This document shows, piece by piece, positions 52,003 through 54,768 of a stretch of DNA of 64,000 nucleotides. Position 1 is the first letter of the stretch, and the number at the start of each line of letters is the position of its first letter. This DNA comes from Escherichia coli (GTDB taxonomy: Bacteria > Pseudomonadota > Gammaproteobacteria > Enterobacterales > Enterobacteriaceae): NCBI RefSeq assembly GCF_003790525.1, contig NZ_CP033635.1; one strand, written 5' to 3'. The notes beneath the pieces are model-generated. The model ran no database searches and was not told the DNA's origin. It was given only the letters and a program-made list of their open reading frames with translations. The position numbers were made by a program, and so were the translations under genes.

Positions 52003-52058
52003 ATCAGCCCGGTCTTGAAGGCCTGATAAGACGCGTGAGCGTCGCATCAGGCAAGGCA
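52003..52058. repeat. REP element
   Basis: gcctgataagacgcgtgagcgtcgcatcaggc between cysI and cysH. Confidence 0.7.
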
Positions 52059-52808: not shown

Positions 52809-52826
52809 ATATTGCCGGATAAATTA

Positions 52827-52864
52827 AACGCCTCTGTCAGAAATGATGGGGGCGTTTTTATTTT
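52827..52864 (+). terminator. putative cysH terminator
   Basis: aaacgcc...ggcgttt stem followed by tttttatttt. Confidence 0.4.
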
Positions 52865-53072
52865 GCGAGCAGCATTCCTGATTTTAAACGTGAACGTCGT
52901 TGGAAGAATTAACAGGTATAGAATGGCGTTGGGTGCTTGAGGCTGTCTGGCGTTAAGCATTCGCGAGGTTCCAGATGGACAAAAGCCCCAGGCGATATTT
53001 CTATCAACCTGAGGCCAGCGTTCGAACCCAAACAATTCGAATGTTAGTCTCTTCTTTGCAGGGAGGCAAGAC

Positions 53073-53225
53073 ATGCTGACAAAATATGCCCTTGTGGCAA
53101 TCATAGTGCTGTGTTTTACAGTACTGGGATTCACGCTGATGGTAGGCGACTCGTTGTGTGAGTTGAGTATCAGAGAACGTGGTATGGAGTTTAAGGCGGT
53201 TCTCGCTTACGAATCGAAGAAGTAG
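53073..53225 (+). CDS. Hok/Gef-family type I toxin (HokE-like small membrane peptide)
   Basis: 50-aa [53 protein letters not shown]; single TM helix, conserved Cys and C-terminal AYES motif; GGGAGG RBS; not in the supplied ORF track (below length cut-off). Confidence 0.8.
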
Positions 53226-53246
53226 CCACCACGCGGGGGTAAAACC

Positions 53247-54585
53247 CATAAGCGCTAACTTAAGGGTTGTGGTATTACGCCTGATATGATTTAACGTGCC
53301 GATGAATTACTCTCACGATAACTGGTCAGCAATTCTGGCCCATATTGGTAAGCCCGAAGAACTGGATACTTCGGCACGTAATGCCGGGGCTCTAACCCGC
53401 CGCCGCGAAATTCGTGATGCTGCAACTCTGCTACGTCTGGGGCTGGCTTACGGCCCCGGGGGGATGTCATTACGTGAAGTCACTGCATGGGCTCAGCTCC
53501 ATGACGTTGCAACATTATCTGACGTGGCTCTCCTGAAGCGGCTGCGGAATGCCGCCGACTGGTTTGGCATACTTGCCGCACAAACACTTGCTGTACGCGC
53601 CGCAGTTACGGGTTGTACAAGCGGAAAGAGATTGCGTCTTGTCGATGGAACAGCAATCAGTGCGCCCGGGGGCGGCAGCGCTGAATGGCGACTACATATG
53701 GGATATGATCCTCATACCTGTCAGTTCACTGATTTTGAGCTAACCGACAGCAGAGACGCTGAACGGCTGGACCGATTTGCGCAAACGGCAGACGAGATAC
53801 GCATTGCTGACCGGGGATTCGGTTCGCGTCCCGAATGTATCCGCTCACTTGCTTTTGGAGAAGCTGATTATATCGTCCGGGTTCACTGGCGAGGATTGCG
53901 CTGGTTAACTGCAGAAGGAATGCGCTTTGACATGATGGGTTTTCTGCGCGGGCTGGATTGCGGTAAGAACGGTGAAACCACTGTAATGATAGGCAATTCA
54001 GGTAATAAAAAAGCCGGAGCTCCCTTTCCGGCACGTCTCATTGCCGTATCACTTCCTCCCGAAAAAGCATTAATCAGTAAAACCCGACTGCTCAGCGAGA
54101 ATCGTCGAAAAGGACGAGTAGTTCAGGCGGAAACGCTGGAAGCAGCGGGCCATGTGCTATTGCTAACATCATTACCGGAAGATGAATATTCAGCAGAGCA
54201 AGTGGCTGATTGTTACCGTCTGCGATGGCAAATTGAACTGGCTTTTAAGCGGCTCAAAAGTTTGCTGCACCTGGATGCTTTGCGTGCAAAGGAACCTGAA
54301 CTCGCGAAAGCGTGGATATTTGCTAATCTACTCGCCGCATTTTTAATTGACGACATAATCCAGCCATCGCTGGATTTCCCCCCCAGAAGTGCCGGATCCG
54401 AAAAGAAGAACTAACTCGTTGTGGAGAATAACAAAAATGGTCATCTGGAGCTTACAGGTGGCCATTCGTGGGACAGTATCCCTGACAGCCTACAAAACGC
54501 AATTGAAGAACGCGAGGCATCGTCTTAACGAGGCACCGAGGCGTCGCATTCTTCAGATGGTTCAACCCTTAAGTTAGCGCTTATG
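53247..54585 (+). mobile_element. IS186 insertion sequence
   Basis: 1339 bp; perfect 23-bp terminal IRs (cataagcgctaacttaagggttg); flanking about 11-bp direct repeat gggtaaaaccc within a GGGG-N6-CCCC palindrome. Confidence 0.9.
53302..54414 (+). CDS. insL: IS186 transposase (IS4 family)
   Basis: about 370 aa from MNYSHDNWSAILAHIGKPEEL, recognisable as the IS186 transposase. Confidence 0.9.
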   Translation: MNYSHDNWSAILAHIGKPEELDTSARNAGALTRRREIRDAATLLRLGLAYGPGGMSLREVTAWAQLHDVATLSDVALLKRLRNAADWFGILAAQTLAVRAAVTGCTSGKRLRLVDGTAISAPGGGSAEWRLHMGYDPHTCQFTDFELTDSRDAERLDRFAQTADEIRIADRGFGSRPECIRSLAFGEADYIVRVHWRGLRWLTAEGMRFDMMGFLRGLDCGKNGETTVMIGNSGNKKAGAPFPARLIAVSLPPEKALISKTRLLSENRRKGRVVQAETLEAAGHVLLLTSLPEDEYSAEQVADCYRLRWQIELAFKRLKSLLHLDALRAKEPELAKAWIFANLLAAFLIDDIIQPSLDFPPRSAGSEKKN

Positions 54586-54768
54586 GGGTAAAACCCCGCG
54601 TACTGAATTGTGATGGTTTGGTCTCCTGCACCCTTTTTTAATTTATATTGTTTATGTGAATATTATGCCTATGTTTATTATTCATATATATTACGGATGA
54701 AAATTATTTGATTATTCATAATGTAAATATTTTATTGAACGATATATATCACAGATAATTTTTAATAT

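Follow-up and report, generated by a model that had tools for sequence, protein, structure and literature searches.

The Hok/Gef toxin gene found between cysH and cas3 in the stretch of DNA analyzed here (64,000 nucleotides of Escherichia coli, NCBI RefSeq assembly GCF_003790525.1, contig NZ_CP033635.1; hereafter the window) belongs to the hokX/sokX locus, and the 34-codon reading frame that runs through its mRNA leader into the hok start is probably incidental rather than a Mok leader peptide, the true mok start having been lost. A first-pass annotation had tentatively taken this frame for a mok-type frame, by which hok would be translationally coupled and through which Sok would exert its antisense control.

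The hokX/sokX locus and its surroundings

A hokX/sokX type I toxin–antitoxin locus sits between cysH and cas3 in the window, where it is cut by an IS186 element. Its main parts are as follows.

52931..53088, + strand: hokX mRNA leader, through the hok start region (full-model match to Rfam RF01794, 'sok')
52975..53033, − strand: SokX antisense RNA (reverse complement, 100% identical to K-12 sokX, b4701)
53073..53225, + strand: hokX CDS, a 50-aa Hok/Gef toxin (PGAP CDS in an identical genome, Pfam PF01848)
53247..54585, + strand: IS186/IS421 (terminal inverted repeats, transposase ORF, annotation)
54621..54633, + strand: fbi element GTCTCCTGCACCC with a U-run after it (natural 3' end, folding back on tac)

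In the Rfam cmscan search, RF01794 matched the + strand with a score of 111.1 bits (gathering score 59), and a match on this strand is the model's description of the hok mRNA leader. The 5' end of the leader, GGGTGCTTGA, is the tac element, and its initial GGGTGC(C/T)TGA is unchanged throughout 54 relatives. The 50-aa hok product matches PF01848 with 43.1 bits (cut-off 22), and PGAP labels the CDS 'Hok/Gef family protein' in an identical genome. The 487 nt from 52809 to 53295 are 100% identical to E. coli strain CM2, where the gene order is cysJ-cysI-cysH, the Hok/Gef CDS, an IS421/IS186-family transposase, and cas3. The hok gene at the cysH-iap position has been named hokX in the literature (PMC7232551). 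Based on the Rfam match, the PGAP gene order, the PF01848 match, the identity of SokX, and the published name, the window locus is the already known hokX/sokX and not a new one.

Indeed, there is no essential difference from E. coli hokX/sokX, of which sokX is annotated in K-12 and hokX was first noted in E. coli B. The two share the position (cysJIH, hok, then cas3 or iap), an identical SokX, the Hok protein found in E. coli B (WP_000956460.1), and an IS element 3' of hok, which has been reported for E. coli B. The hallmarks of a hok/sok system are all found at the locus: a Hok/Gef toxin gene, a Sok RNA overlapping the leader, and the tac/fbi and ucb/SD/dcb pairings.

The IS186 insertion point is a GC hairpin 21 nt past the hok stop codon, with a target duplication of ~10 bp, about GGGTAAAACC, and it has shifted fbi by 1.34 kb. 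In an intact allele (L008), fbi lies 46 nt past the hok stop, with the U-run ending at 65 nt, and a tac-fbi pairing is predicted in the full-length fold. IS186 has severed the 3' fold-back element in the window, and such a removal of the natural 3' end is regarded in the field as inactivating. The hokX of E. coli B and the chromosomal hok loci of K-12 have been described as inactivated, several of them by IS elements, and in K-12-type strains the leader and sokX are kept while hok is lost right after its ATG.

The closest paralogue is K-12 hokE/sokE, with 83% DNA identity, 80% identity of the Hok proteins, and the same leader architecture. It resembles the window locus in carrying IS186 at the same relative place (as does K-12 hokC) and in missing the canonical mok ATG, but has GGGGC for the GAGGC of the window leader, with a compensating change in dcb, and its upstream ATGs (at -99 and -36) are in the hok frame and do not end at the hok start. 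Loci of the hokE type have, independently, an upstream ATG with a GAGG near the same place. No mokX is annotated at the locus or described in the literature searched, and a search of the literature for mokE and mokX returned fungal monacolin genes only. The prediction of Mok in hok homologues has been called 'not trivial' and was left out by recent authors (bioRxiv 10.1101/2025.08.07.668861).

The 34-codon frame and the canonical mok start

Four elements are needed to place the long frame with respect to the mok starts of other hok loci.

52975..53079, + strand: 34-codon uORF, ATG 52975 to TGA 53077-79 (sequence, ORF list)
52941..52980, + strand: inner stem of the tac hairpin, with arms at ~52941-52952 and 52968-52980 (cmscan alignment, RNAalifold, pair counts)
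53011..53015, + strand: GAGGC, homologue of the mok Shine-Dalgarno sequence (aligns with GAGGCC 5' of the mokB and mokC ATGs)
53022..53024, + strand: canonical mok start column, which reads TCG (alignment A3)

The description of the frame given in the first-pass annotation holds exactly. From ATG 52975 to TGA 53077-79 it has 34 sense codons, its end overlaps the hok ATG (53073-75) as ATGCTGA, where the overlap reads ACATGCTGA, it lies inside a genuine hok mRNA leader, within the part from tac to hok, and it takes in the entire Sok-complementary stretch (K-12 sokX corresponds to the minus strand of 52975-53033). A GAGG is located at 52965-68, 6 nt 5' of the ATG, and the stop at +4 relative to the hok ATG means that the frame of this allele reads into the hok TIR. 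When the 142-nt leader was shuffled 5000 times with its dinucleotides preserved, 4.5% of the shuffles had an ATG frame of 34 codons or more to that stop, 16% had one of 12 codons or more, and 23% had one of any length. With p ~0.045, the 34-codon frame is only mildly unusual. The uORF peptide has no family match in Pfam or NCBIfam.

The stop codon itself is made by Hok codons 2-3 (CTG ACN, encoding Leu-Thr); where codon 2 is CTA, the stop is TAA in the same position. Of 58 loci, 46 have CTGA for Hok codon 2 and the next base, 9 have CTAA, and 3 have CCGA, so that a stop is lacking only in three Met-Pro-Thr variants. Because it is forced by the Leu-Thr of Hok, the stop is not independent evidence for the uORF, and its conservation as TGA or TAA, which we had considered as such, was dropped for that reason. 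The change from CTG to CTA is a transition, and the absence of CTC and CTT is weak evidence.

The position of the start codon is where the frame departs from known mok frames. The annotated ATGs of K-12 mokB (b1420) and mokC (b0018) are located 7-11 nt inside the Sok 5' end and 7 nt past GAGGCC. The same placement has been described for the mok start of R1 (PMC9841398), and in three phage-borne R1-type loci GAGGCC is followed after 7-8 nt by ATG; these three are all that a scan of viral contigs for R1-type Hok yielded, and the calibration of the canonical placement is correspondingly small. In the window, SokX begins near 53033, and its terminator hairpin and U-tract finish near 52979-52984. 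ATG 52975 is thus found at the terminator-tail (3') end of the Sok target and next to a GAGG different from the mok Shine-Dalgarno sequence, rather than 5-9 nt past the ucb-masked GAGG under the 5' part of Sok. Like the mok frames of R1 and K-12, the 34-codon frame leads into the hok TIR and overlaps the Sok complement, but those frames start 7 nt past the ucb-masked GAGG(CC) under the Sok 5' end, whereas ATG 52975 lies ~47 nt further upstream; moreover, R1 mok, mokB, and mokC overlap much of hok, whereas the 34-codon frame ends 7 nt into it. A frame with the ATGCTGA stop would be functionally compatible, in that for R1 mok only translation as far as the hok TIR matters (PMC9841398).

The comparison with chromosomal mok frames therefore goes against the proposal that this is a mok-type frame: mokB, mokC, and eight relatives all start 7 nt past GAGGCC, ATG 52975 lies elsewhere and is not homologous to the mok start, and the mok column of the window is TCG 53022-24. 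In alignment A3, this TCG is overlain by the mokB ATG and by the ATGs of four relatives (L021, L025, L031, and L044) from Enterobacter, Kluyvera, and Klebsiella pneumoniae. Since the homologous column reads TCG in this alignment, the canonical mok start is lost in the window. The loss extends to most of the 54 leaders of the hokX/hokE Hok clade that were collected in a scan of genome contigs: the canonical column holds ATG in 8, CTG in 1, and a triplet other than ATG, GTG, TTG, or CTG in 45, including TCG in 10. The column of the window is located at -51 relative to hok, in frame with hok and out of frame with the 34-codon uORF. Six of the eight loci that keep the mok ATG likewise have it at -51, in the hok frame, while two have it at -50 and end at the +4 stop; as aligned, the true mok starts of the clade keep no fixed frame. 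An earlier idea that the long frame had the right frame and the wrong start, based on the mok ATG at -50 in L021 and L025, was dropped after the formal alignment had placed the column, for the loop length of the window, at -51 in the hok frame. A surviving canonical ATG (in Klebsiella, Kluyvera, and the three phage R1-type loci) is often in the hok frame, and an N-terminally extended Hok would result.

The start codon of the long frame is, furthermore, part of an RNA helix. ATG 52975-77 and part of its GAGG belong to the 3' arm of the tac inner stem, which is 96.1% paired over 32 diverse leaders and shows compensatory changes at six of nine pairs, a covariation reached by 0 of 500 column shuffles. 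The consensus 3' arm is AGAAAGAC, AGATAGAC, or AGACAGAC, and that of the hokX lineage (Escherichia species together with near-identical copies in Pseudocitrobacter) is AGATGGAC, the T and G of which are the G.U wobble states of pairs 15/50 and 14/51. Of the 54 leaders, 11 have an ATG at the 52975 column, and each of these belongs to the hokX lineage, in which ATG 52975 has probably been created by two substitutions on the 3' side of the tac stem, with pairing kept as G.U wobbles. In model folds, opening the site of ATG 52975 costs 10-12.5 kcal/mol compared to 6-10 kcal/mol for the hok site. These accessibility estimates come from single-sequence thermodynamic models and do not clearly separate the two upstream ATGs, at 52975 and 53041.

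In orthologous hok loci, the long frame falls into three groups of alleles.

Frame reaches hok, 34 codons: window, UPEC-245U, 2013C-3513, EC571, O104:H4, E. coli B
Frame cut after 18 codons, CCCAAAC changed to CCTAAGC, codon 19 TAA: M16807, WP4, O78, UPEC_U013
Frame cut after 18 codons by a 1-nt deletion and TAG: DA33135, YP3, O157:H7

The window frame is open only through CAA at codon 19 (53029-31). In an evenly spaced sample of 60 of the 5412 matching genomes, with each identity class taken as homogeneous, the long frame is open in ~24 and closed in ~22 of the 46 hok-bearing E. coli rows. The first five alleles had suggested that the long frame is rare in E. coli, which the 60-record sample corrected to about half. 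Among representatives of other species, the frame reaches hok in 0 of 9 hokX-lineage loci. Hok is intact in all loci with a cut frame, and the protein is the same or nearly identical. Neither the start nor the read-through into the hok TIR is thus kept among orthologues: read-through occurs in this allele and fails in about half of E. coli and in the other species sampled, where the frame has 18 codons. The frame is cut in roughly half of E. coli and in every other species sampled, with hok intact, and this is the outcome by which the uORF proposal was to be refuted. Because CCTAAGC is also found in the outgroup L028, the open state of the long frame is probably derived.

The long frame is most likely a by-product of constraints on RNA structure and on the antisense gene. 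Its stop is set by Hok codons 2-3, and it is open only in the alleles with CAA instead of TAA at codon 19, which falls in a loop that also encodes the 5' tail of Sok. What conservation is seen across the frame probably results from overlapping constraints, namely those on the leader helices, on Sok together with its putative promoter, and on the site where ribosomes bind to translate hok.

The leader fold and translation of hok

The elements through which the leader may control hok are the following.

52983..52989, + strand: ucb/anti-SD box AAGCCCC (RNAalifold pairing, full-length fold)
53019..53043, + strand: inner hairpin CGTTCGAA / TTCGAATG (RNAalifold, pair counts)
53047..53051, + strand: dcb box GTCTC (99.4% paired; pairs with the mok-SD homologue when the leader is open)
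53062..53066, + strand: hok Shine-Dalgarno sequence GGAGG (invariant in relatives; spaced 6 nt from the hok ATG)

The ucb box pairs with tac in the open form and with the mok-SD homologue in the closed form. In RNAalifold, columns 1-6 pair with columns 59-63, and in the full-length fold GAGGC 53011-15 is paired with the GCCCC of ucb. The R1 leader follows the same logic of alternative pairings (PMC9841398). The pairing of GAGGC with dcb covaries, changing from A-U to G-C in 25 versus 5 sequences, and the arms of the inner hairpin (53019-26 and 53036-43) show compensatory changes at three pairs; the 5' arm carries the canonical mok column and the 3' arm carries ATG 53041. The tac/ucb and SD/dcb pairings and the inner stems are backed by covariation. 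An alternative pairing of dcb and the adjoining 3' pyrimidine tract with the hok SD/AUG is also predicted. This hairpin is 91.6% paired over the alignment and also occurs in the full-length fold, and it is invariant, so that covariation is mute on it either way.

In loci lacking the canonical mok ATG, comprising 44 distinct CDSs in 942 pairs from ~20 genera, the dN/dS of hok is 0.155, and Hok is therefore still made. In the preferred model, hok would be translated from its own strong GGAGG site (53062-66) in the open leader fold. Published Ribo-seq studies that mention sokX give a region-wide coverage ratio only, or treat the signal as contamination.

Sok would repress hok by duplex formation and RNase III cleavage, and also by freeing the dcb/pyrimidine tract to pair with the hok SD/AUG. 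When Sok binding was simulated by barring its target from intramolecular pairing, 53042-57 paired with the hok SD/AUG, and the cost of opening the hok site rose from 8.1 to 11.6 or from 6.0 to 9.4 kcal/mol (~+3.4).

A broader reading, which we put forward tentatively and regard as possible rather than probable, is that the hokX/hokE clade, spanning ~20 enterobacterial genera, is largely free of the need for Mok and has re-used the mok Shine-Dalgarno sequence as an RNA switch. The canonical mok ATG is missing in 46 of the 54 leaders, Hok nonetheless evolves under purifying selection (dN/dS ~0.16), and the former mok Shine-Dalgarno sequence, the anti-SD, and dcb still covary. In the open leader, the old mok Shine-Dalgarno sequence would keep the dcb/pyrimidine tract off the hok Shine-Dalgarno sequence, and either Sok binding or the closed full-length fold would free the tract to bury the hok SD/AUG. 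Hok could in this way be controlled without translation of a leader peptide.

Alternative readings and implications for the hokX/hokE clade

A second, shorter upstream frame overlaps the putative promoter of Sok.

53041..53079, + strand: 12-codon sub-frame, ATG 53041 to the same TGA (no Shine-Dalgarno sequence; identical in all E. coli alleles sampled)
53041..53046, − strand: inferred Sok -10 box TAACAT, complement of ATGTTA (7 nt upstream of the 5' end annotated for SokX)
53064..53069, − strand: inferred Sok -35 box TTGCCT, complement of AGGCAA (separated by 17 nt from the -10 box)

The two boxes were assigned by eye and by homology, and a consensus promoter scan listed neither a hok nor a Sok promoter. 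TAACAT occupies the same position as TAAGAT before the annotated K-12 sokB and is most likely the Sok -10 box, while the -35 candidate overlaps the hok Shine-Dalgarno region, where AGGCAA is invariant in 32 leaders.

One alternative is that this 12-codon frame is the equivalent of mok, with Sok occluding its initiation and with termination opening the hok Shine-Dalgarno sequence and thereby coupling hok. Its ATG is found in 48 of 54 leaders, every E. coli allele has the same peptide frame, and in 47 of the 48 loci with the ATG the ORF extends into the hok TIR, the other one (L056, Yokenella) having a premature stop. A 30S footprint at 53041 would overlap the Sok duplex ending at 53033, and no other site opens as much as 53041 in the Sok-bound simulation, from 12.2 to 5.8 kcal/mol as far as intramolecular pairing is concerned. 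However, there is no Shine-Dalgarno sequence within 20 nt, and in free mRNA the site costs 12-13.6 kcal/mol to open. Initiation might use GAGG 53011-14, brought close by the 53019-53043 hairpin in the manner of a split ribosome-binding site, for which phage T4 genes offer an analogy, or alternatively an A-rich loop. The conservation of the ATG has other explanations, as it falls on the final three bases of the inferred Sok -10 box (ATC in the sokB homologue, AGG in the R1 type) and forms the base of the covarying hairpin; for this reason we no longer count it as evidence for a start codon, and the conservation from 53041 to the stop is over-determined by the inferred -10 box and the hairpin. 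In addition, the remaining six loci have ATA, the natural state in the Klebsiella oxytoca group, the distance to hok is 32, 33, or 36 nt depending on the genus, which places the frame either on the +4 stop or in the hok frame (fr2 or fr0), and at least 12 codons are found in 16% of shuffles. We therefore consider this alternative unlikely.

The 34-codon frame could act in this allele as a working substitute for mok, in which case ribosomes would load at GAGG 52965 and ATG 52975, read across the Sok target and the hairpin of the hok SD, stop at 53077-79, and restart 4 nt upstream at the hok ATG, with Sok blocking or cleaving within the frame. The frame is open in the window with a GAGG 6 nt 5' and the ATGCTGA overlap, it spans the Sok complement, about half of the E. 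coli genomes sampled have it open, E. coli B and O104:H4 among them, and it has a shuffle p of ~0.045. In R1, furthermore, mok translation is needed only up to the hok initiation region and the sequence of the peptide is irrelevant (PMC9841398), so that missing conservation of the peptide is by itself no argument against function. Nevertheless, ATG 52975 and part of its Shine-Dalgarno sequence are buried in a strongly covarying helix, the ATG is missing from 43 of 54 related leaders, and the start is located at the 3' tail of Sok instead of below its 5' recognition end. At codon 19 the frame is broken both in CCTAAGC, the likely ancestral state, and in all hokX loci outside E. coli, with hok intact and conserved. 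This makes the substitute role decidedly improbable. Several points speak against the incidental reading as such: the frame is open in this allele and in about half of E. coli, its GAGG is ideally spaced, and its end forms a classic coupling overlap. The upstream ATG with GAGG that hokE-type loci independently have near this place counts against it too, and the chance level of 4.5% likewise amounts to non-negligible evidence.

Least probable is that the locus is translationally dead, the change of the mok ATG to TCG having silenced hok and IS186 (53247-54585 in the window) having removed the fold-back end, with no leader frame functioning: start-codon substitutions in R1 mok abolish Hok production (PMC9841398), other E. 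coli hok loci have been described as inactivated as noted above, and K-12-type strains have deleted the hok CDS outright, but the dN/dS of 0.155 over the 44 distinct CDSs from ~20 genera and the conservation of the leader helices, the Sok target, and the hok Shine-Dalgarno sequence, some of it with covariation, argue that hok is still expressed and regulated in the clade, although the IS-cut copy may be impaired.

If the 34-codon frame is incidental, as we think probable, naming it mok would be an error, since it is most likely an accident of one group of alleles. Its stop across the hok start is forced by the Met-Leu-Thr N-terminus of Hok. The rule that follows for annotators is to tie a mok call to the GAGG beneath the 5' end of Sok instead of choosing the longest ORF upstream. 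Natural allele pairs exist for both sites in question, namely CAA and TAA at codon 19 and ATG and TCG at the mok column. More generally, the clade-wide loss of the mok start in loci where Hok remains under selection questions the generality of the paradigm of mok coupling derived from R1.

The hokX deletion and IS186 in the hok 3′ UTR

K-12-type strains retain the entire hokX leader together with sokX, at 100% identity to the window up through the hok ATG. Past this codon the homology ends and cas3-upstream sequence takes over, which places the breakpoint of the hok deletion at the start codon. In the window, hok is intact and its 3′ UTR carries an insertion.

Junction and 3′ features at hokX
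Window 53075/53076; position 2767 of the compared K-12-type locus L002; NC_000913.3 near 2887300: end of homology, K-12-type hok deletion junction
Window 53247-54585: IS186/IS421, within the GGGGGTAAAACCCC hairpin, 21 nt past the hok stop
Window 54621-54633: fbi, the 3′ fold-back element, beyond IS186

IS186 is flanked by a target duplication of ~10 bp and sets hok and its 3′ fold-back element 1.34 kb apart. Since IS186 occupies the same relative position at K-12 hokE and hokC as at the window hokX, hok 3′ UTRs are suggested to be a recurrent IS186 target. The transposase frame of the window copy (IS421 family) is uninterrupted over 372 codons (53296-54414); in the 100% identical strain CM2 (L001 4494-5609), PGAP calls the IS421-family transposase a frameshifted pseudogene, and the end coordinates of the CM2 annotation and the window ORF lie 3 nt apart. 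A separate REP-like palindromic element is found in the cysI-cysH spacer (52010-52053), scoring 33.6 and 25.2 bits against naRNA4 (RF02564) on the two strands, below the gathering score of 59.5.

Upstream start codons in frame with hok

Where the canonical mok ATG (GAGGCC, 7-8 nt, ATG) is kept in Klebsiella and Kluyvera, it lies in the hok frame with no intervening stop, and the same holds for three phage-borne R1-type loci.

Upstream ATGs in the hok frame
ATG at -51: canonical mok ATG in Klebsiella and Kluyvera loci (L031, L033, L041, L042, L044, L045)
ATG at -57: canonical mok ATG in the phage-borne R1-type loci (L076-L078), stop-free
L007 438-689: upstream frame of K-12 hokE, 83 codons, continuing in frame into hokE

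Because these canonical mok ATGs are in frame and stop-free, the predicted product at such loci is Hok with an N-terminal extension of 17-19 residues instead of a separate Mok peptide. The K-12 hokE upstream ATG (AAAGATGAAGCCCC) has a GAGG 9 nt to its 5′ side; its frame also occurs in three other hokE-type loci, and in L037 is disrupted by a 1-nt deletion.

Sequence relationships of the hokX leader and SokX

A match to RF01794, which Rfam calls 'sok antitoxin', extends across 157 positions of the hok-sense strand (52931-53088). What this family models in practice is the hok mRNA leader in its tac/ucb open form, not the ~59-nt antisense Sok RNA. Near-identical hokX leaders are present in Pseudocitrobacter faecalis, P. 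vendiensis and a Pseudocitrobacter MAG (L012-L014), where the Hok protein is 100% identical to that of the window. This similarity is well above that expected from the distance between the genera, and thus suggests that these copies were recently acquired by horizontal transfer or reflect contamination.

Variants at 53027-53033 (CCCAAAC, CCTAAGC and CGT-AGC) decide whether the long upstream frame is open or closed. The same site falls in the hairpin loop encoding SokX nucleotides 1-7, its single-stranded 5′ recognition tail, and the Sok recognition sequence therefore varies between E. coli lineages.
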